Assembly: GCA_964642475.1 (NCBI GenBank)
Contig: CAZXRC010000002.1
Span: 148,028 to 212,027 of the forward strand
Reading direction: 5' to 3'
Source of the DNA: an uncultured Gemmatimonadaceae bacterium
Lineage (GTDB): Bacteria; Gemmatimonadota; Gemmatimonadetes; Gemmatimonadales; GWC2-71-9
DNA length: 64,000 bases
Positions 1 through 59,715 of this stretch are shown here, piece by piece; position 1 is the stretch's first letter, and every line of letters begins with the position of its first letter. Below the pieces are notes generated by a model that was not told the origin of the DNA, ran no database searches, and saw only the letters and a program-made list of their open reading frames with translations. The translations under genes were made by a program, and so were the position numbers.

Positions 1-130
1 CTTCTCCATCTACAGCAAGGCGGAGCTGGTGTTCAACGAGGGATGGCTGGTCTTCGACCGCAAGGATCCCCGGCATCAGCCGGCGACCGATTTCAACCTG
101 GGAATCACCGAGCCGGGGGTGGGCCGATGA
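1..130 (+). CDS. 3' end of a CDS starting upstream of the window (family not assignable from 42 aa)
   Basis: The frame of nt 2 is open from the window edge to TGA 128-130 (..FSIYSKAELVFNEGWLVFDRKDPRHQPATDFNLGITEPGVGR*). The stop overlaps ATG 127 of the next gene (ATGA). Confidence 0.5.
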   Translation, partial: FSIYSKAELVFNEGWLVFDRKDPRHQPATDFNLGITEPGVGR

Positions 131-1437
131 GGCGGACTTGGGGACGGGCGGTCAGCCGGTTGGCGCCGGCGTGGAGAGGGATGCGGACGATCGCGGGGGC
201 CACGGTCGTGCCATTGCTGTTCAGCGCCTGGCCGTCTGACCGACTGACCGCCCAGACGATCGCGATCACCAACGCCACGGTCCATCCCGTCTCCGGGCCC
301 AGGCTCGAGCATGCCACGGTGGTGATCCAGGACGGTCGGATCGCGGCGGTGGGCGCCAGCGTGACCATTCCCGCCGGGGCGACCCGGATCGACGGCACCG
401 GCAAGATCGTGACGCCGGGGCTGGTGCATGCCCGGACCACGTTGGGACTGAGTGACGTCGGCTCGATCGACGCCACCAACGAGTCGGGGCACGAGGGAGA
501 CGTCAACGCCGCATTCACGGTTACGGAAGGGATCGATCCCGCCACGCCGCTGATCGCCATCGCCCGCCTGGAAGGGGTGACCACCGCCCTCACGGTGCCG
601 ACCAGCGGCCTGGTGCAGGGCCAGGCGGCGCTCATCGGGCTCGCCGGTGACCGGATCGAAGCCCTGGTGCGGAAGTCGCCGGCGGCGCTGGTGATCGACC
701 TGAGCGAAGACACCAAGAGCGCGGGGGGCGGGAGCCGCGCGGGGGTGCTGCAGCGGCTCAGACAGCTCTTCCTCGACGCCCAGGAGTACGATCGTCGCAA
801 GGCGGAATATCGGAAGAACGCCATTCAACAGCTCTCCGCTCCGGCGGCCGATCTGGAAGCGCTGGGCCCGGCGCTCAGGGGGGAGGAACCGGTTCTCGCC
901 CGGGCCAACCGGGAAAGCGACATCGCCAGCGCGCTCCGTCTGGCTCGCGAATTCCGCCTGCGGTTGGTGATCCTCGGCGGGATCGACGGCTGGAAGGTGA
1001 CACCCGCCCTGGTGGCCCAGAAGGTGCCGGTGATCATCAATCCGATCAACAACATTCCCACCTTCGACGGGCTGGGGGCGCGCTTCGACGCCCCGGCGCT
1101 GATGGCACAGGCCGGGGTCCCGGTGGTGATCATCGAAGGAGAGAGTGGCGGTCCCCGCAATCTCCGCTGGGCCGCGGGCCACGCAGTGCGCTTCGGGCTA
1201 CCCTGGGAGGCGGCGCTCGCCGCCGTCACCCTCAATCCGGCTCGGGCACTCGGCGTCGAGGACCGCTACGGCTCGCTCGAGCCCGGGAAGGTCGCTGATG
1301 TGGTGGTCTGGTCGGGCGACCCGCTCGACTATGCGAGCCGAGCGGAGCACGTGTTCATCGGAGGAGTGGAGATGCCGCGCACCAGCCGACAGACCGAGCT
1401 GCTGGAGCGATATCGGACGTTGCCGCCGAAGTACTAG
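127..1437 (+). CDS. amidohydrolase-superfamily protein with signal-peptide-like N-terminus
   Basis: Track frame 43..1437. I place the start at ATG 127 (ATGA overlap with the upstream stop; MRRTWGRAVSRLAPAWRGMRTIAGATVVPLLFSAW looks like a signal peptide). ITNATVHPVSG..VVIQDGRIAAVG..GKIVTPGLVHA and GSLEPGKVADVVVWSGDPL are the usual amidohydrolase landmarks. The HxH metal motif is degenerate (VHARTT). Confidence 0.8.
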   Translation: MRRTWGRAVSRLAPAWRGMRTIAGATVVPLLFSAWPSDRLTAQTIAITNATVHPVSGPRLEHATVVIQDGRIAAVGASVTIPAGATRIDGTGKIVTPGLVHARTTLGLSDVGSIDATNESGHEGDVNAAFTVTEGIDPATPLIAIARLEGVTTALTVPTSGLVQGQAALIGLAGDRIEALVRKSPAALVIDLSEDTKSAGGGSRAGVLQRLRQLFLDAQEYDRRKAEYRKNAIQQLSAPAADLEALGPALRGEEPVLARANRESDIASALRLAREFRLRLVILGGIDGWKVTPALVAQKVPVIINPINNIPTFDGLGARFDAPALMAQAGVPVVIIEGESGGPRNLRWAAGHAVRFGLPWEAALAAVTLNPARALGVEDRYGSLEPGKVADVVVWSGDPLDYASRAEHVFIGGVEMPRTSRQTELLERYRTLPPKY

Positions 1438-1502: not shown

Positions 1503-1844
1503 CTACTTCACGACCTCCGCCTCCCCCGTCTCCACCCCGGCCGGCGCCGGTGCCTCGCTCACAGTCACGGCCTCGCCCTTGGCGGCGGACATCTCCCGGT
1601 CAACCTTGGCGATGGAGGCATCGAGCGTGTCCATCCGGACCATCCAGGCATCGATCTCAAGCGAATCGACCACCGTGCCGCGGTCGCGACGGTGAACCAG
1701 GTAGCCCAGCTTCCTGGCCGCCTCGTCCCGTTCCCGCGCCAGCCGAAAACGCTCGATTTGGAGCCGGCCCTCGTCCAGGGCCTGTTGCGCCCGCTTGCCG
1801 AAGGTCTCGAGTTCGCTGTTGAGCCGATCCAGGATCCCCGCCAT
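1503..1844 (-). CDS. hypothetical coiled-coil-like protein (113 aa)
   Basis: It is the only long ORF in this gap and has strong G/C third-position bias. The sequence is charged and heptad-like (LDRLNSELETFGKRAQQALDEGRLQIERFRLARERDEAARKL). No family recognised. Confidence 0.55.
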   Translation of the reverse strand: MAGILDRLNSELETFGKRAQQALDEGRLQIERFRLARERDEAARKLGYLVHRRDRGTVVDSLEIDAWMVRMDTLDASIAKVDREMSAAKGEAVTVSEAPAPAGVETGEAEVVK

Positions 1845-1903
1845 GTGCCCCTCGGAGTTGAGTGCTGGGACAATCTAACGGCTTGGCGGCGGGGCGTGTT
1901 TCA

Positions 1904-2035
1904 GGTTGGGCCGTTGGCTGGTTGGCGCGTCAGCCGCAGGGCACTGGCTGCACCCGGGAAAGCAAAACCCTCCGCGATCAGGCGCGGAGGGCAGCTTCAC
2001 ACGGGGTCAGCGAGCGGCTAACGGCCAACGGCCGG
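1904..2035. repeat. GGCCGTT-family inverted arms bracketing the rpmA terminator
   Basis: Left arm GGTTGGGCCGTTGGCTGGTTGGCG (1904-1927). Right arm GCGGCTAACGGCCAACGGCCGG (2014-2035). About 70% complementary by hand. The right arm overlaps the last codons of rpmA. Confidence 0.6.
1959..1991 (-). terminator. intrinsic terminator of rplU-rpmA
   Basis: On the minus strand: CCCTCCGCG-CCTGAT-CGCGGAGGG (9-bp perfect stem, 1968-1991) followed by TTTTGCTTT (1959-1967), 27 nt downstream of the rpmA stop. Confidence 0.75.
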
Positions 2036-2281
2036 ATACACCGAGACCTTCATCCGCTTCTTGTCCTTGTGCTCGAACTTCACCACGCCATCGACCGTCG
2101 CGAAGATGGTGTGGTCGGTGCCCAGCCCGACACCCTTGCCGGGATGGAACTTGGTGCCGCGCTGGCGGACGATGATGTTGCCGGCGATGACCTGCTCCCC
2201 GCCGTAGCGCTTTACCCCCAGAAACTGGGGATTGGAATCGCGGCCGTTGCGGCTGGAGCCGACGCCCTTCTTATGTGCCAT
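2018..2281 (-). CDS. rpmA: 50S ribosomal protein L27
   Basis: [48 protein letters not shown].. is the canonical L27 sequence. Confidence 0.97.
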
Positions 2282-9066: not shown

Positions 9067-11834
9067 GCACGGATGACCGGTGGACCCGGTTGATGGAGCT
9101 GTTCGACCAGGCTCGCGAGGTGGCGCCGGGAGAGCGGGACGAGTGGATCGCCCAGAGCTGCGGGGATGACGACGCCCTGCGCCGGGAGCTGGTCCGTATG
9201 CTGGAGGCCGACAGCGGCAACCGGGGGGGGATCCTCGATCTGGAACTCCAGCTCCCCGTTTCCTTCGACGACTACAGTGCTCTCGCCGCCGACCTGTCGG
9301 AGCGGTATGAGTTGACCCGGGAGCTGGGCGAAGGGGGCATGGCCCGGGTCTTCCTGGCCACCGAGCGGAAGCATGGCCGGGCGGTGGTGCTCAAGGTGCT
9401 CAAGCCGGAGATCGCGCGGCACTTCGGGCAGGACCGGTTCAACCGCGAGGCCCGCATCCTCGCCCAGCTGGCCCATCCCCACATCGTCGGGCTGATCGAC
9501 TCCGGTGAGGCGGGGGGCCATCTCTACTACGTCATGCCGTATCTCGAGGGGGAAACCCTGCGGGAGCGGCTCCAGCGTCTCGGTCCCTTGCCGATCCCGA
9601 TGGCGGTGAGCCTGCTGCGCGACATCGCCGACGCGCTCCGGCATGCGCACCAGGCCGGGGTGGTACACCGCGATCTTAAGCCCAGCAACATCTTCATGGT
9701 GGGCGACCACGCCTTTCTTCTCGACTTCGGGATCGCCAAGCTGCTGGAACCCGAGCCGGGCGGTGACCCGCCGACCGAGAGCGGCGCCGCGATCGGCACG
9801 CCGGCCTACATGGCGCCGGAGCAGCGGATCGGCGACCCCCACCTCGATCACCGGGCCGACCTCTACACCTGGGGGGTGGTCGCCTACGAGTGCATCATCG
9901 GACGCCTCCCCGACAATCAGATCCTCCCGGTCTCGGCCGGCGACATCGTGGATCGGCGCTCCGAGACCCCACCCGCCCTGGCCCGGTTGATCGCCGAGTG
10001 CCTCTCGCCCGCGGCGGAAGACCGGCCGGGCGACGCCGACCGGATCGCGCGCGCGCTCGAGGGGCGGATGAGCGCCGCGGTCCCGGTCCGGGACGGCCCA
10101 GTGGCAGGCCGCCGCTGGCGCCTGACTACCGCGCTCATGGGAGTCCTCGGCGTGGTGGCGCTGGGAGGGACGCTGACCTGGAGGTCCCGGGTGCGCGACG
10201 AGGGCACTCTCCATGCGCCCATCGCGGTGAGTGCGTTCAGCAACGAGACCGGCGACCCTTCTCTCGACACCTGGGGACGCCTGGCCGGCGACTGGATTAC
10301 CGAGGGGCTGCACGGCCTTGGCTCGCTTGGGGTGGTACCGTGGAGCACGTCGCTCAAGGCCTCCGAGCTCATCACTGAGGAGCGCGCCGCCTCCCGGCCG
10401 GTGGATCCGGTCGCGGTGCTTCGCGCCGAGACCGGCGCGGCAACCGTAATCACCGGCTCCTACTACCGGGTAGGCGATTCGCTCCGGTTTCACGCGGAAA
10501 TTGCCGACGCCGAGGCCCGGCGGGTTATCGCCACCCTGCCTCCGGTGACCGCTCCGGTCGCCGCGCCGGAGGGAGGCATCTCGGAACTCCGCCAGCGCGT
10601 GATGGGCATGGTGGCGGTGAGCCAGAACCTGGGGGTGTCGCACGTCAGCGGCCTGACGCGCCGCCCCCCGACCTTCGAGGCCTACCAGGCCTTCGACCGG
10701 GGCCTGACCCTGAGCCGGAACCAGGAGTACGAACAGTCGCTCCCCGAGTTCCTCCGGGCCTTTGAGCTGGACACCCAGTTCGTTTCCGCTCTGCTCTCGG
10801 CCGCCACGAGCAGCTGGAACGCGGGGGAGCCTGAGAAGATGGACTCGTTGCTCAAGGAGGCCCGCAAGCGCGAAGGCTCGCTTTCCGAGTACCAGCGCCT
10901 GCGGCTCGAAGGGATGGAGGCGAGAATTGCCGGCGACGGACAGGCGGAACTCGCCGCGCTACGGCGGGCGGCGGCGGCGGCCCCCAACTCGCAGGCGGTC
11001 TACAACCTGGCGGACGTGGCCCTCAACACCGACCGGCCGGATGAGGCTCGCCAGGCGCTGGAAGGTCTCGATCCCGACCGGGGCGAGATGCGAGGGTGGA
11101 CACCGTACTGGTACGATCTGACCCACGCCTACCACCTGCTGGGACGGCACGATTCGGAGCTGCTTGCCGCCCGCGAGCTTCGGCGTCGCTACCCCGATCG
11201 CCGGGCCGGGCTGGTCTTCGAGGTGCGGGCGCTGGCCGCGGCGGGCGACACCGCCGCGGTCGACCGGGTGCTGGCGGAGGGTCGATCGCTTCCCCCCAAT
11301 ACCTACTGGTCTCAGGGCGCAGCCCTCACGGTGGCGGGGGAGGAACTGCAGGCCCACGGCCTGGGTCAGGCGGGCTGGCGCTATCTCACCGAGGCGGTGA
11401 GCTGGCTCGACCGGCAGCTGGCGCTCACCCCGGGCGACCGATCCCACCGGTACTGGCTGGCCAGTGCACTCTACGATCTGGGCGACTGGCGCCGTTCGCT
11501 GGGGGTATCACGCGATCTGTCGAAGCAGTTTCCCAACCGGATGGACTACCGGATTCTCGCCGCGGTGGCGGCGGCCCGGCTGGGGCTCCCCGAGGCGGAT
11601 AGCACCGTGAGATCGGTCCGCCCGCATGAGCGGGGAGCCGCGGCAATGCTGCGGGCCCGGCTCGCCACGATCCGGGGCCAGCCCGACGCCGCGCTCGGCC
11701 TCTACAGCGAAGCCACTCAACTCGGCGTCAATGGGCTGCCCTGGATTCACGCCTCGGCGGCGTACGACCTCTTCCTTCTGGGCGAGGCGCGCCACCGCCT
11801 GCCCCTTTCGCTCCGGGCGGGCCTCAAGCCCTGA
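9063..11834 (+). CDS. membrane Ser/Thr protein kinase with large extracytoplasmic TPR-like C-terminal region
   Basis: Hanks motifs GEGGMARVF, VVLKVLK, HRDLKPSNIF, DFGIAK and GTPAYMAPE. TM segment WRLTTALMGVLGVVALGGTL. ATG 9063 overlaps the sigma-factor stop (ATGA). Confidence 0.9.
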   Translation: MSTDDRWTRLMELFDQAREVAPGERDEWIAQSCGDDDALRRELVRMLEADSGNRGGILDLELQLPVSFDDYSALAADLSERYELTRELGEGGMARVFLATERKHGRAVVLKVLKPEIARHFGQDRFNREARILAQLAHPHIVGLIDSGEAGGHLYYVMPYLEGETLRERLQRLGPLPIPMAVSLLRDIADALRHAHQAGVVHRDLKPSNIFMVGDHAFLLDFGIAKLLEPEPGGDPPTESGAAIGTPAYMAPEQRIGDPHLDHRADLYTWGVVAYECIIGRLPDNQILPVSAGDIVDRRSETPPALARLIAECLSPAAEDRPGDADRIARALEGRMSAAVPVRDGPVAGRRWRLTTALMGVLGVVALGGTLTWRSRVRDEGTLHAPIAVSAFSNETGDPSLDTWGRLAGDWITEGLHGLGSLGVVPWSTSLKASELITEERAASRPVDPVAVLRAETGAATVITGSYYRVGDSLRFHAEIADAEARRVIATLPPVTAPVAAPEGGISELRQRVMGMVAVSQNLGVSHVSGLTRRPPTFEAYQAFDRGLTLSRNQEYEQSLPEFLRAFELDTQFVSALLSAATSSWNAGEPEKMDSLLKEARKREGSLSEYQRLRLEGMEARIAGDGQAELAALRRAAAAAPNSQAVYNLADVALNTDRPDEARQALEGLDPDRGEMRGWTPYWYDLTHAYHLLGRHDSELLAARELRRRYPDRRAGLVFEVRALAAAGDTAAVDRVLAEGRSLPPNTYWSQGAALTVAGEELQAHGLGQAGWRYLTEAVSWLDRQLALTPGDRSHRYWLASALYDLGDWRRSLGVSRDLSKQFPNRMDYRILAAVAAARLGLPEADSTVRSVRPHERGAAAMLRARLATIRGQPDAALGLYSEATQLGVNGLPWIHASAAYDLFLLGEARHRLPLSLRAGLKP

Positions 11835-15945: not shown

Positions 15946-15949
15946 GGAT

Positions 15950-15977
15950 GTTCCGAGTTCCGAGTTCCGAGTTCCGA
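15950..15977. repeat. solo tandem heptamer array (GTTCCGA)4
   Basis: Four perfect GTTCCGA units fill most of the 40-nt gap between stop 15986-15988 and GTG 15945. No inverted partner lies nearby. Confidence 0.9.
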
Positions 15978-15985
15978 GGGGACGG

Positions 15986-24574: not shown

Positions 24575-24668
24575 AGTCACGAGTCATGAGTCACGAGTCG
24601 AGCGTCATGGCGCCGGGTCGGGGATCCGCTGAACGGCCCGCGACTCGCGACTCGTGACGCTCGACTGG
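24575..24668. repeat. inverted tandem-heptamer hairpin (AGTCACG-type versus CGCGACT-type)
   Basis: AGTCACG AGTCATG AGTCACG AGTCGAG CGTCATG (24575-24609) versus CGCGACT CGCGACT CGTGACG CTCGACT (24639-24666). About 80% complementary. It fills the gap between stop 24670-24672 and ATG 24570. Confidence 0.85.
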
Positions 24669-31000: not shown

Positions 31001-31077
31001 GGAGAGTCGGGAGACCAAGTCGGGAGTCGAGAGTCGGCGCACCGTCTACACCGGGTGACTCTCGACTCTCGACTCTT
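31001..31077. repeat. inverted tandem-heptamer hairpin (GAGAGTC-type versus GACTCTC-type)
   Basis: GGAGAGTCGGGAGACCAAGTCGGGAGTCGAGAGTCGG (31001-31037), a 17-nt loop, then GTGACTCTCGACTCTCGACTCTT (31055-31077). It starts 6 nt after the ntrC-type stop, in terminator position. Confidence 0.8.
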
Positions 31078-31838: not shown

Positions 31839-34649
31839 ATGTTTCGATCCGTCGTCCGCACGCTTGCCCCCGGCGCCCTCCTGGCGCTCCTCGCGGTGGT
31901 GGCCCGCCCGGTCCAGGCTCAATCCGGCAGCGTGTCGGGGCAGGTCTCCGACAGCACCGGGGGGGCGGTGGCCGGGGCCATCGTCACGGTAGACAAGACC
32001 AGCCTCCGCGCCACCACCAGCGCGAGCGGCCGGTATGTGCTCCGCGGCGTGCCCGCCGGGAGCCAGGTCATCCGGATCCGGGCCATCGGCTTCCTGCCGG
32101 CCAGCGCGACGGTCGAGGTGGCCGGAGACCGGACCCAGGACTTCGCGCTCGTGCGCTCGCCGGTGGAGCTGGCCCCGATCGACATCGTGGTCGGTTCCCG
32201 CGGCCGGCACACCGCGGCCGAGGAGTTGGCGGTTCCGGTGGACGTGTACACCGCGGAGCAGATTCAGCAGCAGGGGACCACCGAAACCAGTCAGATCCTC
32301 CAGAGCCTGTCCCCCTCGGTGAACTTCCCCCGTCAGAGCGTGACGGACGCGAACGACATCATGCGGCCGTTCACGCTGCGGGGGCTCTCGCCCGACCATA
32401 CCCTGGTGCTGGTGAACGGCTGGCGGCGTCACCAGATGGCGGTGCTCAATACCTTCGCCTACGGGATGGGCGCCGGTTCGACCGGGGTCGACATGAACGC
32501 TATCCCCGGCGGCGCGGTGGAACGGATCGAAGTACTGCGCGACGGGGCCGCGGCCCAATACGGCTCCGACGCGATCGCCGGGGTGGTGAACGTCGTGCTC
32601 AAGGAGGGGAAGTTCGCGCCCTTCCTGAGCACCAACGCCGGACAGTACGTGACCGGCAAGGGCTACAAGAACGACGGAACCACGGTCGACATGAACGGCG
32701 GGCTGGGGATCGGGCTGGGGCGCGGCTCGCTCGCGATCTTCGGCGAGTTCCAGCAGCGCGACCGGACCAACCGGGCCTGGGCCGATCCATTCCTGGTCGA
32801 CCGGGCCGGCAACGCCGATTCGATCAACCCCAAGACCGGCGAAGTGATCGTGAAGCGGAACAGTCTCCGCCAGCCGAACCTGCATTGGGGCGACGGGCTC
32901 GAGAAGGACGCGATGACGTTCGCCAACTTCCGGATGCCGCTCAACCCATCCGGGTCGAGCGAGGTGTATGCCTTCAGCGGCTACAGCCACCGGACCGGCA
33001 CCGGGAACGGCTACTGGCGCTACTTCGATGGGAACCGGAACTGGCCGGAGATCTACGCCGACGGCTTCCTTCCCGAGTTCCATCCCACGGACGAGGACTT
33101 CTCGGCCACCGGCGGCGTCCGCACCTCGGCCGGGGGCTGGGGCATCGATTTCGGCGGCTCCTACGGGGTGAACCGCTTCGACTACGATCTCGAGAACACG
33201 CTCAACGCCTCGCTCGGTCCCTGCCTGGTGACGGCCTGCGCCCCCGGCGCCGATGGGGTCCTGGGCACCGGGGATGACCCGGGGATTCCCAATCAGACCA
33301 GCTTCTTCGCCGGCCGGCTGCTCAAGCGGGAGACACTCGGCGCGCTGAACCTGGCGCGCTCGGTGAACGTGGGGCTGCCCGGGCCGCTCAACGTGGCGGT
33401 GGGCGCGGCGGTGCGGCGGGAACAGTTCAAGATCGAGGCGGGCGAGCGGGCCTCGTGGATCAACGGCAACCACCAGGCCCAGGACTCAAGCGGTCCGGCG
33501 CCGGGCGGCTCCTCGGTCTTCGGGGGATTCTCGCCGGGCGACGCGTCCGACCACAGCCGCACCAACTACGGCTTCTACGCCGATCTCGAGAGCAACCTCT
33601 CGAAGGACGTGCTGGCCAATGTGGCGGGTCGGTTCGAGAACTACAGCGACTTCGGGTCCCGGGTCTCCGGGAAGGCGGCACTCCGCTTCCAGCCCAACCG
33701 CCGGCTGGTCCTGCGGGGGGCGGCCAGCACCGGCTTCCGGGCTCCGGGGCTGGCCCAGAACTACTTCAGCCACGTCACCACGAGCTTCATCGCCGGCCAG
33801 CTGGTGGAGGTGGGCAACTTCCCGACCGACCACCCCGCCTCGAAGCTCTTCGGGGCCAAGCCGCTCCGGGAAGAGACGTCGCTCAACCTCAGCGCCGGCC
33901 TGGCGGTGACCCCGCGGGACAATTTCACGCTCACGCTCGACGTCTTCCACATCAAGATCAACGATCGGATCCTGCTGGGCGCCACCTTCGACGACGACAC
34001 CACGCTCGCGATTCTCGCGGCCAACGGTTTCACCGGCATCGGCGGCCTGCAGTACTTCACCAACGGCCTCGACACCAAGACCCAGGGCATCGACCTCGGC
34101 GCCAATCTCCGGGTGCCGGCCGGCGCGAGCGGGACCCTGACGTTCGATCTCGGCGTGAACTACACCAAGAACGAGATCACTCACATCGATCCCCTGCCGG
34201 CGATCCTGGCCAACTCGGACGAACCGGGGCTGATCGACTCGGTGACCTACATCGGCATTACCGAGGAGCGGCCCGACTGGCGCGGCACCCTCACCACCAA
34301 CTACGAGACCGGCCGGTTCCATGCCCTGGGCCGGGCCAGCTACTTCGGCAAGTTCTCTTCGGCCCAGCCGGGATTCTGCGACCTCTGCCGCGAGAACTAC
34401 GGCGCCAAGACGCTGTTCGATCTCGAAGTCGGGTACAATTTCAACCAGATCAAGGTCTCGGTCGGCGCCCGCAACCTCTTCGACACCTATCCCGATTCGC
34501 CGAAGTCGCTGCGAGACGTGGATGGCGCCGGCAGCACTTCGAAGGACTTCAACAACAACTTCGGGACCTTCCCCTGGGCGGCGGCATCGCCGTTCGGGTA
34601 TAACGGGCGGTTCCTGTACAGCCGGGTGGATTTGACGCTGGGATGGTAG
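31839..34649 (+). CDS. TonB-dependent outer-membrane receptor with N-terminal carboxypeptidase-regulatory-like domain
   Basis: Signal peptide, then GSVSGQVSDSTGGAVAGAIVTV..GRYVLRGVPAG (CarbopepD_reg-like), then a plug (IDIVVGSRGRHTAAE.., LRGLSPDHTLVLVNG, NAIPGGAVERIEVLRDGAAAQYGSDAIAGVVN). The barrel ends ..RVDLTLGW. Confidence 0.92.
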   Translation: MFRSVVRTLAPGALLALLAVVARPVQAQSGSVSGQVSDSTGGAVAGAIVTVDKTSLRATTSASGRYVLRGVPAGSQVIRIRAIGFLPASATVEVAGDRTQDFALVRSPVELAPIDIVVGSRGRHTAAEELAVPVDVYTAEQIQQQGTTETSQILQSLSPSVNFPRQSVTDANDIMRPFTLRGLSPDHTLVLVNGWRRHQMAVLNTFAYGMGAGSTGVDMNAIPGGAVERIEVLRDGAAAQYGSDAIAGVVNVVLKEGKFAPFLSTNAGQYVTGKGYKNDGTTVDMNGGLGIGLGRGSLAIFGEFQQRDRTNRAWADPFLVDRAGNADSINPKTGEVIVKRNSLRQPNLHWGDGLEKDAMTFANFRMPLNPSGSSEVYAFSGYSHRTGTGNGYWRYFDGNRNWPEIYADGFLPEFHPTDEDFSATGGVRTSAGGWGIDFGGSYGVNRFDYDLENTLNASLGPCLVTACAPGADGVLGTGDDPGIPNQTSFFAGRLLKRETLGALNLARSVNVGLPGPLNVAVGAAVRREQFKIEAGERASWINGNHQAQDSSGPAPGGSSVFGGFSPGDASDHSRTNYGFYADLESNLSKDVLANVAGRFENYSDFGSRVSGKAALRFQPNRRLVLRGAASTGFRAPGLAQNYFSHVTTSFIAGQLVEVGNFPTDHPASKLFGAKPLREETSLNLSAGLAVTPRDNFTLTLDVFHIKINDRILLGATFDDDTTLAILAANGFTGIGGLQYFTNGLDTKTQGIDLGANLRVPAGASGTLTFDLGVNYTKNEITHIDPLPAILANSDEPGLIDSVTYIGITEERPDWRGTLTTNYETGRFHALGRASYFGKFSSAQPGFCDLCRENYGAKTLFDLEVGYNFNQIKVSVGARNLFDTYPDSPKSLRDVDGAGSTSKDFNNNFGTFPWAAASPFGYNGRFLYSRVDLTLGW

Positions 34650-34713
34650 GCGGTCAGGCGGTCAGGCGGTCAGGCGGTCAGGTGGTCAGGTGGTCAGGTG
34701 GTCAGGTGGTCAG
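34650..34713. repeat. tandem octamer array (GCGGTCAG)4(GTGGTCAG)4, left arm of the four-helix-bundle cassette
   Basis: Eight contiguous 8-nt units start 1 nt after the receptor stop (34647-34649). The last unit contains the stop codon (34710-34712, minus strand) of the cassette gene. Confidence 0.95.
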
Positions 34714-35079
34714 GTCCGGAGGGTGCTTCGCCGCACCGAGGCGTACAAGCCCCAGACGGATCTGCCCGCCTGATCGCGTGTTCCTTCCAGCTGCTCCCAT
34801 AAGGTGGACGAGAGGTAACCAAGGTCTTTGGCGAGCCTCAAGAAGTACCCCACCTCAGCCAGAGAACCGTTGGCCATGTCCAGATAGCGACAGAACTCCC
34901 TTGAGCCCCTCTTTCGCGGAACCCTCGGTGATGTTGGCCGCGGCCGATACCGCCGCTCGCCGCGACTGCGATACCAAGCCAAACAGTTCTTCCCAAGGCC
35001 ACTTGGCCGATGCCTGGTAAATGGCAAGAACAAGCTGGTGACAGAGTTGCCAGGCGACGAAGCGCTCGTGAGGTGGCAT
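34710..35079 (-). pseudogene. four-helix-bundle protein gene (23S rRNA IVS protein / Avd-like family), frameshifted
   Basis: The N-terminal half sits in one frame (MPPHERFVAWQLCHQLVLAIYQASAKWPWEELFGLVSQSRRAAVSAAANITEGSAK). The C-terminal half sits in the +1 frame (RGSREFCRYLDMANGSLAEVGYFLRLAKDLGYLSSTLWEQLEG..). Together they give the family pattern FGL.SQ.RRAAVS...NI.EG...R.S..EF..FL..A.GS..E. The span is 370 nt, one nt more than a multiple of three. Confidence 0.8.
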
Positions 35080-35115
35080 ATCGCATCGTAACCCGAACCA
35101 TCGACACACGCACAA

Positions 35116-35163
35116 CTGACCGCCCGACCGCCTGACCGCCTTGCCGCCTGCCCGCCTCCCTAC
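35116..35163. repeat. degenerate inverted octamer array (CTGACCGC-type), right arm of the cassette
   Basis: CTGACCGC CCGACCGC CTGACCGC CTTGCCGC CTGCCCGC CTCCCTAC. The first five units are complementary to the left array at about 35 of 40 positions. The last unit contains the mgtE stop (35160-35162). Confidence 0.8.
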
Positions 35164-36509
35164 ACCCCCAGCAACACCCCCGCCAACCCGAACAGCAGCG
35201 TGTACCCGCACACGTCCGTGAACGTCGTCACGAAGATCGAGGACGCGATCGCGGGATCGATACCGAACCGATTGAGCAGCAGCGGAATGAACGCCCCGGC
35301 AAACCCGGCCACGAGGAGATTCCCCGTCATCGCGAGGAAGACCACCAGCCCCAGGTTGTGGCCGTGGCCCAGGGCGGTGGCGACCGCCGCCGCGGCGAGC
35401 CCGTTCACCGCCCCGTTGGCCAGACCCGCCGCCATCTCCTTGCCGATGATCGGCAGCGCCTTCCCGACCGGCACCAGCCCCAGCGCCACCCGGCGTACCG
35501 TGACTGCCAGGGCCTGGGTGCCGCCGTTGCCACCCATGCCGGCGATGACCGGCATCCAGAAGATCAGCGCCTGCACCGCCGCCACCTTGCCGCTGAAGTA
35601 GCTCGCCACGGCCCCGGCGGCAAAGGCGGTCACCAGGTTGATCAGCAGCCACGGGAGCCGGCTCCGCACCGCGCCATGCCACGGGGCCGCCAGCTCTTCG
35701 TCGGCCGAGGTTCCGCCGAACTTGAGCAGGTCCTCGGTCTGTTCCGCCTCGACCACGTCGATGACATCGTCGAAGGTGACCTGGCCCAGGAGCTTGCCGG
35801 CTCCATCGACCACCGGCACCGCCGGGACGTTGTAGCGGCCCATCACCCGGGCCACCTCTTCCTGGTCGGTCTCCGGCGCCACCCGGACCTCGGTGTCGTC
35901 CATGATCTCGAGCACGGTCCGGGTGGCCGGCGTGGTTACCAGGCGTTTGATCGGAAGGACCCCCAGGAGATGGGCCTGCTCGTCCACCACGTAGACCTGA
36001 CTGAAGTCCTCGATCTCCTCCGCCTGGCGCCGGAGCGACTCGATGGCCTCGCCCGCCGTGTCGGTGGCCCGGACGGTCACCACCTGCGCCGTCATCAGGC
36101 CGCCGGCCGTCTCCGGGTCGTAGCGGAGCAGCTCCTCGATGTCGGCCCGGTCTTCGACCTCGGCGAGCACCCGTTCCTGATTCTCGGGATCGAGATTCCC
36201 CAGCAGGTCGGCGGCCTCGTCGTCCGGCAGCTCGTCGACGATCTCGCCCGCGGTCTCGGGCGATTCCTCGGCCAGCGTCTCCAGGGTCTCTTCCGCCTGG
36301 GTCTCGTCCGGCATCTCCACCAGCGCGGCACTCGAGAGCCGGGGCGGCAGCGCCTTCACCACCTCGATCCGCTCGTCGTCGTTGAGCGACGACAGCACGT
36401 CGCCCAGGTCCGCCGGCTCGGCCTTCTCCGCGAGGGCCAGAAAGCCCCGCAGGTTGCCCCGCCGCACCAGGTCGAGCATCGACCGGACGATTGCGACGGT
36501 GCGGTTCAT
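35160..36509 (-). CDS. mgtE: magnesium transporter MgtE
   Basis: An N-domain with acidic helices, tandem CBS (VVDEQAHLLGVLPIKRLV, VPVVDGAGKLLGQVTFDDVIDVV), and a C-terminal 5-TM MgtE channel domain (..GMGGNGGTQ..). Confidence 0.93.
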   Translation of the reverse strand: MNRTVAIVRSMLDLVRRGNLRGFLALAEKAEPADLGDVLSSLNDDERIEVVKALPPRLSSAALVEMPDETQAEETLETLAEESPETAGEIVDELPDDEAADLLGNLDPENQERVLAEVEDRADIEELLRYDPETAGGLMTAQVVTVRATDTAGEAIESLRRQAEEIEDFSQVYVVDEQAHLLGVLPIKRLVTTPATRTVLEIMDDTEVRVAPETDQEEVARVMGRYNVPAVPVVDGAGKLLGQVTFDDVIDVVEAEQTEDLLKFGGTSADEELAAPWHGAVRSRLPWLLINLVTAFAAGAVASYFSGKVAAVQALIFWMPVIAGMGGNGGTQALAVTVRRVALGLVPVGKALPIIGKEMAAGLANGAVNGLAAAAVATALGHGHNLGLVVFLAMTGNLLVAGFAGAFIPLLLNRFGIDPAIASSIFVTTFTDVCGYTLLFGLAGVLLGV

Positions 36510-40329: not shown

Positions 40330-40337
40330 GTTCCTCA

Positions 40338-40414
40338 GTTCCGAGTTCCGAGTTCCGGGTTCCGGGTTCCGATTGCAGGGCATGAGTCCAGAGGAGGCAA
40401 CTCGGAACTCCGAA

Positions 40415-40415
<1 letters not shown>
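40338..40415. repeat. inverted tandem-heptamer hairpin, (GTTCCGR)5 versus TCGGAAC-type
   Basis: GTTCCGA GTTCCGA GTTCCGG GTTCCGG GTTCCGA TTGC (40338-40376) versus GCAACTCGGAACTCCGAAC (40397-40415). The right arm touches the aspS stop. The left arm ends 9 nt from the phoH ATG. Confidence 0.85.
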
Positions 40416-42180
<1,765 letters not shown>

Positions 42181-58633: not shown

Positions 58634-58743
58634 TTGGCGGGCCGTTGGCCATTGGCCGCTGGCCGATAGCCGCTGCTCCTTGGGAGGAAGGATTCGGGGA
58701 AGCGGACCATTCGTCTGAGGCCTACGGCCAACAGCCAATGGCC
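58634..58743. repeat. inverted tandem-heptamer hairpin, GGCCGTT family
   Basis: GCCGTTG GCCATTG GCCGCTG GCCGATA GCC (58641-58671) versus GGCCTACGGCCAACAGCCAATGGCC (58719-58743). About 80% complementary. It runs from 2 nt past the panC ATG to the panB stop codon. Confidence 0.85.
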
Positions 58744-59552
58744 TATTCAAAACTGTGCTCCCTGGTCGGATACCGCCCCGCCCGCACGTCGGTCGCGAAG
58801 GCGCCCGCGGCGGCCCGCACCGTGGCCGCGAGATCGGCGTAGGTCTTGAGAAACCTGGGGTTGAACCCCTCGTTGAGCCCCAGCATATCGTGAAGCACCA
58901 GGACCTGCCCATCGCAGCCGGGGCCAGCGCCGATACCGATCGTCGGTGCGCCGATCGATTTGCTCACCGCCTCCGCCAGCGGCGCGGGGACCAGCTCCAG
59001 CACGATGGCACAGGCGCCGGCGTCCTCCAGGAATTTCGCGTCCGAGCGCACCCGGTCGGCGGCGGCCCGATCCCGACCCTGCACCCTGGGCCCGCCCAGC
59101 TGGTGGATCGCCTGGGGCGTGAGGCCCAGGTGGCCCATCACCGGGATGCCGACGCGCACCAGGGCCCGCACCGTCTCGGCCATCGGCTCCCCCCCCTCGA
59201 GCTTTACCCCGTGGGCTCCGGTCTCCTGCAGGACCCGGCCGGCGTTGCGAATGGCCTCCGCCACCGAGACCTGGTAGGTGAGAAAAGGCAGGTCGACGAA
59301 CACCAGCGAGCGGCCGGCGCCCCGGACCACCGAGGCGGCGTGGTAGATCATCTGGTCGAGCGTGGCGCTCAGGGTGTTCGCTTTCCCGGCGAGGACCTGG
59401 TTCACGGAGTCGCCCACCAGCAGCACGTCGACCACCCCGTCGAGCAACCGCGCGAACAGCGCGTCGTAGCAGGTGAGCACGGCGATCTTCTCGCCGCCGC
59501 GCTTCTTCTCGCGCAGGTCGGGGATGGTCAGCGGCTTTGGGTCGTCAGCCAT
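58743..59552 (-). CDS. panB: 3-methyl-2-oxobutanoate hydroxymethyltransferase
   Basis: IAVLTCYDALFARLLD, LLVGDSVNQVLAG, GAHGVKLEGG and VMGHLGLTPQ. Confidence 0.95.
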   Translation of the reverse strand: MADDPKPLTIPDLREKKRGGEKIAVLTCYDALFARLLDGVVDVLLVGDSVNQVLAGKANTLSATLDQMIYHAASVVRGAGRSLVFVDLPFLTYQVSVAEAIRNAGRVLQETGAHGVKLEGGEPMAETVRALVRVGIPVMGHLGLTPQAIHQLGGPRVQGRDRAAADRVRSDAKFLEDAGACAIVLELVPAPLAEAVSKSIGAPTIGIGAGPGCDGQVLVLHDMLGLNEGFNPRFLKTYADLAATVRAAAGAFATDVRAGRYPTREHSFE

Positions 59553-59715
59553 AGAGTTCCGGGTTCCGAGTTGCAGCTGGACTAGTCGCGGCGAGTTCCG
59601 TCACCGGCACCGAATAGCCTGAGATGGGAACCGAGTTCCGAGTTGCGGTCCCTCCAGTCGCGGCGAAACGCGGCGCCGCCGGCACCGACTCCTCGGAACT
59701 CGGAACTCGGAACTC
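59553..59715. repeat. composite element: GTTCCGA-family inverted arms enclosing a ~72-nt direct duplication
   Basis: The left arm GAGTTCCGGGTTCCGAGTTGC (59554-59574) pairs with (TCGGAAC)3TC (59693-59715) at 19 of 21 positions. Inside, 59563-59613 and 59635-59688 are diverged direct copies sharing GTTCCGAGTTGC, AGTCGCGGCGA and CCGGCACCGA. Confidence 0.8.

Follow-up and report, generated by a model that had tools for sequence, protein, structure and literature searches.

A four-helix-bundle gene between inverted tandem-repeat arrays in an uncultured Gemmatimonadaceae bacterium: a probable intervening sequence-type hairpin cassette outside ribosomal RNA

Why should a small four-helix-bundle gene, of the protein family known from the intervening sequences (IVSs) of 23S ribosomal RNA (rRNA), lie between the convergent genes for a TonB-dependent receptor and the magnesium transporter MgtE, in the loop of a hairpin made of octamer repeats? 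The locus in question belongs to an uncultured Gemmatimonadaceae bacterium (GenBank assembly GCA_964642475.1, contig CAZXRC010000002.1), of which a stretch of 64,000 nt, referred to here as the window, was analyzed. An initial annotation of the window had read the feature as an IVS-like and possibly mobile cassette outside rRNA. We consider, with a probability of roughly 70%, that it is an IVS-type hairpin gene cassette living outside rRNA. In the direction of the gene, the cassette consists of a G-rich array, a short spacer, a PF05635/TIGR02436 gene of about 120 codons and a complementary C-rich array that starts at the stop codon, and its occurrence across several phyla as well as in 23S rRNA makes it look like one widespread selfish element. 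The rRNA IVS protein family and its stem design were known; what appears to be new is the PF05635 cassette with inverted tandem arrays outside rRNA. We found no description of PF05635 genes between inverted tandem repeats outside rRNA in a literature search which covered subscription journals poorly, so that an earlier report is possible.

The stop codons of the TonB receptor gene (TAG, 34647-34649) and of mgtE (35162-35160) are convergent, as the initial annotation had placed them, and the first repeat unit directly adjoins the former. On the plus strand, the left array is made up of four copies of GCGGTCAG (34650-34681) followed by four of GTGGTCAG (34682-34713), and the right array of about five imperfect CTGACCGC-type units (35116-35157 according to Tandem Repeats Finder (TRF); period 8, 5.2 copies, 82% matches); read on the strand of the cassette gene, the left array is C-rich and the right array G-rich. 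Inverted arms at 34645-34692 and 35113-35160 are complementary at 85% of their 48 nt and, in a 40-nt version, at 88%, in agreement with the earlier count of about 35 of 40 positions. We scored arms as the best local complementarity between the 220 nt upstream of the ATG and the 195 nt downstream of the stop, and took as the control randomly placed windows with this geometry in related DNA. The window scores 61 against a control median of 18, a 95th percentile of 24 and a maximum of 36, indicating that the stem is more than chance. The long-range stem is also predicted by RNA folding of 34640-35165, in the minimum free energy and the centroid structures of either strand, which lends the proposed base pairing its support; the z-scores are -8.0 for the plus strand and -4.8 for the minus strand. 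The stronger plus-strand fold is attributable to GTGGTCAG, which is GCGGTCAG with a C-to-T change in four units: opposite CTGACCGC it forms G:U pairs only in plus-strand (TonB-sense) RNA, and A:C mismatches in minus-strand RNA. No strand bias of this kind was seen across the 61 loci with aligned arms described below. Neither rRNA nor any other Rfam family was found in 34300-35500, and the repeats in 34600-35220 are only the octamer arrays and short matches, no search aimed at template or variable repeats having been made. As the initial annotation had it, there is no reverse transcriptase nearby, that is, among the five neighboring genes scanned (TonB receptor, HHH protein, MgtE and two CNNM/CorC genes).

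The cassette gene occupies 370 nt of the minus strand, from an ATG at 35077-35079 to a TGA at 34712-34710, and this stop (TCA on the plus strand) does fall within the last left unit. The initial annotation was correct about the length and family of the gene, but overlooked that its open reading frame (ORF) is split: the two halves stand in different frames in the window, whereas intact relatives have 122 amino acids. Removal of one base near 34911 gives a 122-residue protein with the EGxAK(R/K)GxxEF motif that is invariant among twelve relatives, and an extra G in the neighboring GGGG run explains the split equally well. Since the invariant residues are all kept on either side of the lesion, the frameshift is either a very recent event, making this a decaying pseudogene copy, or an assembly error. 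The repaired protein scores 98 bits on PF05635 (cut-off 33.8; E 4.7e-28) and 93.6 bits on TIGR02436 (cut-off 24; E 8e-27), and the N-terminal fragment as encoded 52.9 bits on PF05635; the best structural match is PDB 2gsc (profile E 1.9e-32, residues 3-118). Its family matches are solely to PF05635, TIGR02436 and related subfamily models, with no Y1 (HUH) transposase among them, and a paralogue search of the window found no second family member. The 60-nt sample (34981-35040) earlier given as about 52% G+C has 51.7%, the whole ORF 60.8% and the window 69.4%, and the G+C of the ORF is under that of its flanks in 70 of 71 loci. The foreign origin that had been deduced from this composition stands only in part: the low G+C is real, but it is a trait of the whole family and the cassette was inherited vertically at its junction (see below), which does not fit a recent import. 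The gene evolves much faster than its neighbors, with 57-80% amino acid identity to its relatives (nonsynonymous divergence, dN, 0.14-0.35; synonymous divergence, dS, 0.9 to saturated) compared with 88-93% for MgtE (dN 0.04-0.08, dS 0.58-0.91). As judged from a dN/dS of about 0.06-0.2, the four-helix-bundle protein is nevertheless under purifying selection.

Four-helix-bundle genes elsewhere are flanked in the same way. A metagenome scan yielded 80 relatives at 49-65% identity, and 69 Gemmatimonadales loci with enough flank were scored; 90% of them exceed the 95th percentile of the control, with a median arm score of 46 versus 18. When the arms of a locus are compared with those of other loci instead of with each other, the median falls from 46 to 18 (p = 1e-30), and the complementarity is therefore locus-specific and not compositional. 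In the 61 loci with aligned arms, the median aligned arm is 38 nt long with about four copies per arm, units measure 6-15 nt (mostly 8 or 10), and the medians are 72 nt from the end of the 5' arm to the ATG, 8 nt from the stop to the 3' arm and 453 nt for the loop. All five family members encountered at loci chosen by MgtE, and thus unbiased for the gene, lie between inverted arrays (the window, L002, L022, L052 and L058). A repeat survey with TRF that was independent of the gene and covered the window and 160 loci (about 1 Mb) found inverted arrays with loops of either 0-150 nt or 400-500 nt; every one of the 51 pairs with 400-500-nt loops encloses a four-helix-bundle gene, and no other cargo was seen. 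The 5' arm contains more G than C in 61 of 61 aligned arms, and by TRF units in 50 occupied pairs to 1. We rejected the G-rich upstream arm as a rule for the orientation of the gene, because hairpin polarity reads alike on both strands, and a purine-rich 5' arm is not universal outside Gemmatimonadales.

The PF05635 family comprises 31,262 clusters at 50% identity (E <= 0.001), and its cassette layout extends well beyond this order. A tblastn search against plasmids returned 21 records, mostly cyanobacterial; 12 of the 13 cyanobacterial loci fetched have inverted arrays beside the gene, mostly of 7-8-nt units (e.g., CAGGAGT, GGGAGTA, GGGAAAA, AGGTGAC and GGAGATAA), and the exception carries an ISL3 transposase in place of the 5' arm. 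The copy on a plasmid of Gemmatirosa kalamazoonensis has GGGCAGGA arrays. In a collection of viral contigs, the layout is present at all 10 distinct loci scored (11 returned; G+C 39-70%). Taken over cyanobacterial plasmids, Gemmatirosa, Azospirillum and the viral-collection contigs, 22 of the 23 loci score above their own control (p = 4e-13), and the earlier supposition that other members of the family would be flanked likewise is borne out. As to their hosts, three of the 13 cyanobacterial plasmid cassettes sit in CRISPR-cas operons, one as a cas10/cmr3 insertion and two as cas6/cas4 insertions (L166 1447-1876, L176 385-1066, L177 222-999). The Pseudanabaena locus among these (L176, 470-1065) has long direct arrays on both sides, AAAAGCT upstream and AAAAGCC downstream, along with inverted AGCTTTT further upstream.

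It is well established that ORF-bearing IVSs (S23p) interrupt the 23S rRNA of Leptospira, Coxiella burnetii, Xanthomonas and Brucella, as insertions in helix 9, 25 or 45. The copy from Azospirillum lipoferum lies within a bacterial large subunit rRNA gene (Rfam, 2479 bits) and is a true 23S rRNA IVS; its arms, too, are tandem units (CAGAGGACGGATGA). This direct comparison upholds the likeness to the IVS stem-plus-ORF design on which the initial annotation was based. In the Coxiella IVS, three tandem GACAGAT repeats stand just before the S23p ATG with a copy number that varies between strains, RNase III cuts at the first repeat, the G+C is below that of the genome and the ORF is decaying (PMC4990558).

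Whether the junction itself varies among relatives bears directly on the reading as an element. Among 80 Gemmatimonadales loci from a genome scan with MgtE, about 28 keep the convergent MgtE/TonB junction, and about 25 relatives are empty there, with 70-230 nt and no gene. Around 13 of the empty junctions hold arrays, of differing units, and eight others plain hairpins without arrays. The empty junction of L003 has the unit of the window (GCGGTCAG...CTGACCGC) around an inner G+C-rich stem, its residual homology to the window cassette being only 'TTGTG' next to the arm, and about a dozen have inverted arrays of other 8-9-nt units such as GGCGGTAAG, GGCGATTG, GGCGAGAA, GCGGTTCG and GACGGTAAC. 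The junction is occupied in the closest relatives (L002, L022, L081, L171, L172, L173 and L174, the last four being the contigs of the four best database matches to the window protein), which carry units of their own: GCGGTTAG, GCGGCAAG, GCGGC(T/G)AG or GCGGGCAG. The gene in L173 (2821-3340) is inverted with respect to that in L171 (2869-3345), although both share the unit GCGGGCAG and their proteins are 72% identical; a flip of the loop through recombination of the two inverted arms would account for this, as would re-insertion. The orthologous junction is thus variable in both gene and repeats, with empty, occupied, other-unit and inverted states. In a database of 5.8 billion proteins, the nearest relatives of the window protein are all at the MgtE/TonB junction, which indicates that the window cassette was inherited vertically. 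Other insertions were also observed at this junction. L001 (7350-7723) and L002 (7350-8580) have an extra gene, membrane protein-like by eye, between MgtE and the cassette, and a different gene occupies the junction in L024 and L027; it seems to accept insertions readily. The L001 contig ends soon after MgtE.

The clearest presence/absence pairs are cyanobacterial. Picosynechococcus PCC 7002 reads cas10-TAA-12 nt-ATG-cmr3, and in PCC 7003, with flanks 90% identical, the arrays and the gene are inserted at that point. Nostoc C052, C057 and flagelliforme read '...TTCTAG (A/G)TT ATG...' where Nostoc punctiforme has arrays and gene. These empty sites carry no arrays, so that the strain pairs differ by exactly the arms and the gene. 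ATTCTA stands at both ends of the N. punctiforme insert (L163 1410-1480 and 1835-1870) and once in the empty sites (L168-L170); it is a candidate 6-bp target duplication, but coincides with the last arm unit, and a target-site duplication was not seen in the Picosynechococcus pair. With the Nostoc insertion, the upstream gene ends in TAA instead of TAG. Within Gemmatimonadota, the cassette of L128 is 87% identical to those of L144 and L121 over 525 nt spanning arms, inner terminator, spacer and ORF, in unrelated flanks: after rpmA in L144, and after a tyrosine kinase-like gene (by eye) in L128. Both kinds of evidence are signs of mobility, as the initial annotation had supposed.

Hairpins of similar make without the gene are common. 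In place of the ten other repeat elements counted earlier, the window holds nine other short-tandem-repeat sites, eight of them paired (Table 1). Their unit families recur far above chance: GGCCGTT and GTTCCGA at three sites each, and GCGGTCAG, the unit of the cassette, again in the tentative hairpin at 140-251. Similarly, L100 has an empty hairpin 1.7 kb from its cassette and with the same unit. In empty pairs the 5' arm has G > C in 25 cases to 2, the polarity of the occupied pairs. At orthologous positions in relatives the hairpin is kept and the unit changed, as in L022, where a hairpin at 11424-11539 matching that at 31002-31076 of the window is built of a different 9-nt unit, CGAGACGGT. 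Plausibly, the empty hairpins represent the element class of the cassette in a cargo-free state, like the short ORF-less rRNA IVSs.

Several of these sites merit description of their own. The 3' arm of the hairpin at 140-251 lies within the first codons, signal-peptide-like, of ORF 43..1437, and the right-hand GGCCGTT hairpin (1898-2033) encloses a stem resembling an intrinsic terminator. A 113-residue coiled-coil ORF (1503..1844, minus strand) was considered as a second cargo and rejected: it has no Pfam or NCBIfam match, and the hairpins beside it are two separate ones with no enclosing stem. This rpmA/amidohydrolase junction appears orthologous to one that is occupied by a cassette in another lineage (L121, L144 and related loci), to go by visual comparison of the L27 sequence and of a C-terminal ...RQTEL(L/F)ERY..LPP.Y motif. 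Four hairpins begin a few bases from CAT, a minus-strand start codon (24571, 40330, 58631 and 59550), showing that 5' regions are occupied as well as convergent junctions.

Table 1. Features of the cassette locus and of the other repeat sites in the window.
Feature	Position	Strand or orientation	Remarks and basis
TonB-dependent receptor gene	31839..34649	+	ORF list; Pfam Plug, TonB_dep_Rec_b-barrel, CarboxypepD_reg
MgtE magnesium transporter gene	35160..36509	-	ORF list; Pfam MgtE_N, CBS, MgtE
Left array	34644..34715	3' arm relative to cassette gene	TRF period 8, 9.1 copies, 95% matches
Right array (arm)	35113..35160	5' arm relative to cassette gene	Reaches MgtE stop; inverted-pair match
N-terminal half of four-helix-bundle gene	34906..35079	-	MPPHERFVAWQLCHQLV...NITEGSAK; translation, tblastn
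C-terminal half of four-helix-bundle gene	34710..34913	-	RGSREFCRYLDMANGSLAEV...STLRT, then stop; translations, alignment
Extra base splitting ORF	~34911	-	Context CCGCGAAA[G]AGGGGCTC on minus strand
Spacer between 5' arm and ATG	35080..35115	-	36 nt
Tentative empty hairpin, GCGGTCAG-type unit	140..251 (140-163, 228-251)		18 matches vs 3.1 expected
Two GGCCGTT hairpins	1437-1503, 1898-2033		Between stops of amidohydrolase (43..1437, +) and rpmA (2018..2281, -)
Solo GTTCCGA x4 array	15948..15978		No inverted partner found
Empty hairpin, AGTCACG-type heptamer arms	24575..24666		Loop ~31 nt
Empty hairpin, GAGAGTC heptamer arms	31002..31076		20-nt loop; 763 nt upstream of TonB gene
Empty hairpin, GTTCCGA heptamer arms	40337..40420		26-nt loop; abuts minus-strand start codon
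Empty hairpin, GGCCGTT-type arms	58640..58745		
Hairpin, GTTCCGA-type arms and further internal units	59554..59715		119-nt loop

The spacer of the window cassette contains a TAnnnT box (TACGAT, 35090-35085) 5 nt before the ATG and a TTG at 35115-35113, without a Shine-Dalgarno sequence. These motifs suggest that the spacer may act as an internal promoter whose mRNA is leaderless. Among 81 relatives, the TAnnnT box is most frequent at -12/-11 (25 loci) and TTGA at -37, -36 and -26; C occupies position -1 in 37 of 61 relatives and a GGAG-type motif is absent. In many Gemmatimonadales cassettes (L081-L160), TTGA is found twice in direct orientation (TTGA-N8-TTGA), some 26 and 37 nt upstream of the ATG. 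Its spacing is unlike the standard -35/-10 arrangement (17 nt), and the pair might be a protein-binding site. A consensus sigma-70 scan of the cassette found no promoter. Given this null result, the modest -10-like peak and the misfit of the TTGA pair, the promoter remains a weak inference. The consensus terminator scan found no terminator in the cassette either, and we rejected the possibility that the window cassette is itself an intrinsic bidirectional terminator with a G+C-rich stem and a T run. In empty relatives, for instance L003 and L014, the arrays do enclose an inner stem that has a T run.

How might one kind of cassette survive in settings as different as rRNA, operons and 3' regions? 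By analogy with the rRNA IVSs, the arms would pair in a read-through transcript into a duplex of at least 40 bp, drawing the host flanks together, and RNase III would cut the duplex and thereby insulate the host RNAs from the insertion. The gene is probably transcribed from the spacer promoter as a leaderless mRNA. Tandem-repeat arms could arise by slippage and hairpin-templated correction, and would have the property of pairing in any register. More speculatively, the G-first polarity may reflect the tendency of an unpaired C-rich arm, if transcribed first, to attract Rho, and the C-rich 3' arm of the cassette mRNA might serve as a Rho-dependent terminator of the cassette. The window copy would go back to an insertion that the ancestor of its small clade acquired, with one base added since or misassembled. 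The role of the protein and the mechanism of mobility we can only infer.

Several observations weigh against this reading. Mismatches compatible with G:U pairing are equally frequent on either strand (84 vs 89), and nothing in these counts favors RNA pairing over complementarity at the DNA level. The cleavage by RNase III demonstrated for rRNA IVSs would extend to loci outside rRNA by analogy only. At many Gemmatimonadota loci an intrinsic terminator separates the 5' arm from the gene, so that read-through from the host, and with it formation of an RNA stem, may be rare; the signal for a promoter is a weak one, present in 25 of 81 loci and absent from the consensus scan. Four-helix-bundle pairs of at least 90% amino acid identity all share flanks which, together with the confinement of the window's relatives to one junction, implies that movement is rare, and neither a transposase nor an unambiguous target duplication was found. 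Lastly, the empty junctions of Gemmatimonadales keep arrays, and in this order the gene might have inserted into a host hairpin that was already there.

This last point leads to the alternative that we take most seriously while regarding it as rather unlikely, namely that the hairpin is a bidirectional terminator or 3'-end stabilizer of the host, comparable to repetitive extragenic palindromic (REP) sequences or short tandemly repeated repetitive (STRR) sequences, that it serves the flanking genes, and that the four-helix-bundle gene is an unrelated passenger surviving only in hairpin loops as neutral safe harbors. It would explain why empty hairpins outnumber occupied ones, by nine to one in the window and with about 32 empty pairs in the survey, why arrays at the MgtE/TonB junction extend far beyond the gene-bearing clade, often around an inner terminator-like stem, and why hairpin position is constant between relatives while the unit changes; the lack of strand specificity in the wobble signal is also as expected. 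It fares badly with the cyanobacterial empty sites, which lack arrays and imply that arms and gene come and go together, and with L128 and L144, which have arms, inner terminator and gene in common despite unrelated contexts. Furthermore, gene similarity tracks similarity of the arm unit, like arms are found within 23S rRNA, where a terminator is unwanted, and the TRF survey revealed no other gene family as cargo. The architecture itself can hardly be chance or an assembly artefact in which simple repeats collapsed or misjoined at a weak point of the contig, a notion to which the one-base frameshift and the early end of the L001 contig lend some color and to which we assign a negligible probability: like architecture recurs in more than 90 independent assemblies, in finished plasmids and in an rRNA operon, with scores far above controls, and we consider it refuted.

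An unlikely but far-reaching alternative makes protein and arrays a functional pair. The four-helix-bundle protein would be the trans-acting factor of unrecognized mobile hairpin elements, recognizing or generating hairpins much as RAYTs (REP-associated tyrosine transposases) relate to REPINs (REP doublet hairpins), or as Avd does in diversity-generating retroelements (DGRs); the complete cassette of gene and arms would be autonomous, and the far more numerous hairpins without cargo would be its non-autonomous derivatives, among them those of the window, the rRNA IVSs that are short and lack an ORF, and possibly the cyanobacterial STRR sequences. DGR retrohoming requires Avd (PMC10053308), and in view of the homology of the protein to Avd, spread could proceed via a stem-excised RNA copied by a host reverse transcriptase, and tandem units could stem from repeated copying of a short template or from slippage. 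In keeping with such a pair, unit families recur within one genome and differ at orthologous sites in relatives, cassette and nearby empty hairpin have a unit in common in L100 and in the window, occupied and empty hairpins share the G-rich 5' arm polarity, and the protein is under purifying selection. We know, however, of no catalytic motif in the PF05635 fold, units differ from cassette to cassette, so that one protein would have to serve many sequences, and the five neighboring genes scanned include no reverse transcriptase. That last result also counts against an orphaned avd gene left by a decayed DGR, which is very improbable. The likeness to the Avd model NF033474 (DivGenRetAVD) is weak (E 0.0021; 18.3 bits vs a cut-off of 80) and some relatives are weakly flagged by PF22296 (bAvd), but the best match is the non-DGR structure 2gsc and in seven relatives the MgtE/TonB junction holds the cassette alone; with a score below the cut-off and no reverse transcriptase among the neighbors scanned, a DGR remnant is effectively refuted.

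If the window feature is an IVS-type cassette living outside rRNA, as we favor, the rRNA cases are a small, conspicuous fraction of a population that is far larger. Where rRNA IVSs and their S23p four-helix-bundle ORF came from, and what they are for, has been debated since the early 1990s (PMC4990558). In every lineage sampled, PF05635 members lie between inverted arrays, be it in 3' regions, in operons, including CRISPR-cas, or in rRNA, and should the protein prove to act in trans on such hairpins, the classical IVSs would simply be those members whose insertion site was in rRNA. The arrays provide a simple sequence signature for finding these elements, and natural pairs of empty and occupied sites define their ends. 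Excision, mobility and the role of the protein can be tested in culturable hosts, namely Nostoc punctiforme, Picosynechococcus and Gemmatirosa. An origin is suggested for the abundant tandem-repeat hairpins of Gemmatimonadota and perhaps for the STRR sequences of cyanobacteria, and in annotation such genes and their hairpins are best treated as a single feature.

Among known systems, the rRNA IVS is the closest. In both, the loop of a long stem holds a gene of some 120 codons for a PF05635 protein, and the arm upstream of the ORF contains short tandem repeats (octamers here, heptamers in Coxiella); the G+C is under that of the host, the ORF tends to decay, and short ORF-less forms occur beside the long ones. 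The window copy differs in lying outside rRNA, between the convergent stops of protein genes, where excision is needless for the ribosome; many of its relatives have a promoter-like spacer and an inner terminator, and RNase III processing of the window copy would apply by analogy only. The likeness to XCC0516 of Xanthomonas campestris (PDB 2GSC), the structural representative of the family, is at the protein level only. Avd, the accessory variability determinant of DGRs (PDB 4DWL; NF033474), has a homologous four-helix-bundle fold and a similarly small size, and members of this fold with solved structures form pentamers; the window protein is below the cut-off of the Avd model. REPIN/RAYT systems consist of REP doublets with a single flanked tyrosine-transposase gene. 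The cassette resembles them in having a gene between inverted repeat copies, a repeat scattered without cargo and genome-specific families, and is unlike them in its small helical cargo, which is no Y1 transposase, and in its locus-variable tandem units of 6-15 nt in place of one conserved palindrome. Transposons with terminal inverted repeats and their miniature derivatives (MITEs) likewise have inverted ends, insertion polymorphism between close relatives and cargo-free short forms. The 6-bp ATTCTA at the Nostoc insertion may be a target duplication but is ambiguous, coinciding as it does with an arm unit; the cassette lacks a transposase, and its ends are tandem arrays of a variable unit. 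The STRR sequences of Nostocales are intergenic tandem heptamers, and the arms of the cyanobacterial cassettes are such arrays. To our knowledge, STRR sequences have been described without a linked gene or a paired inverted arrangement; their link to the PF05635 family is observed here, on 13 plasmid loci.

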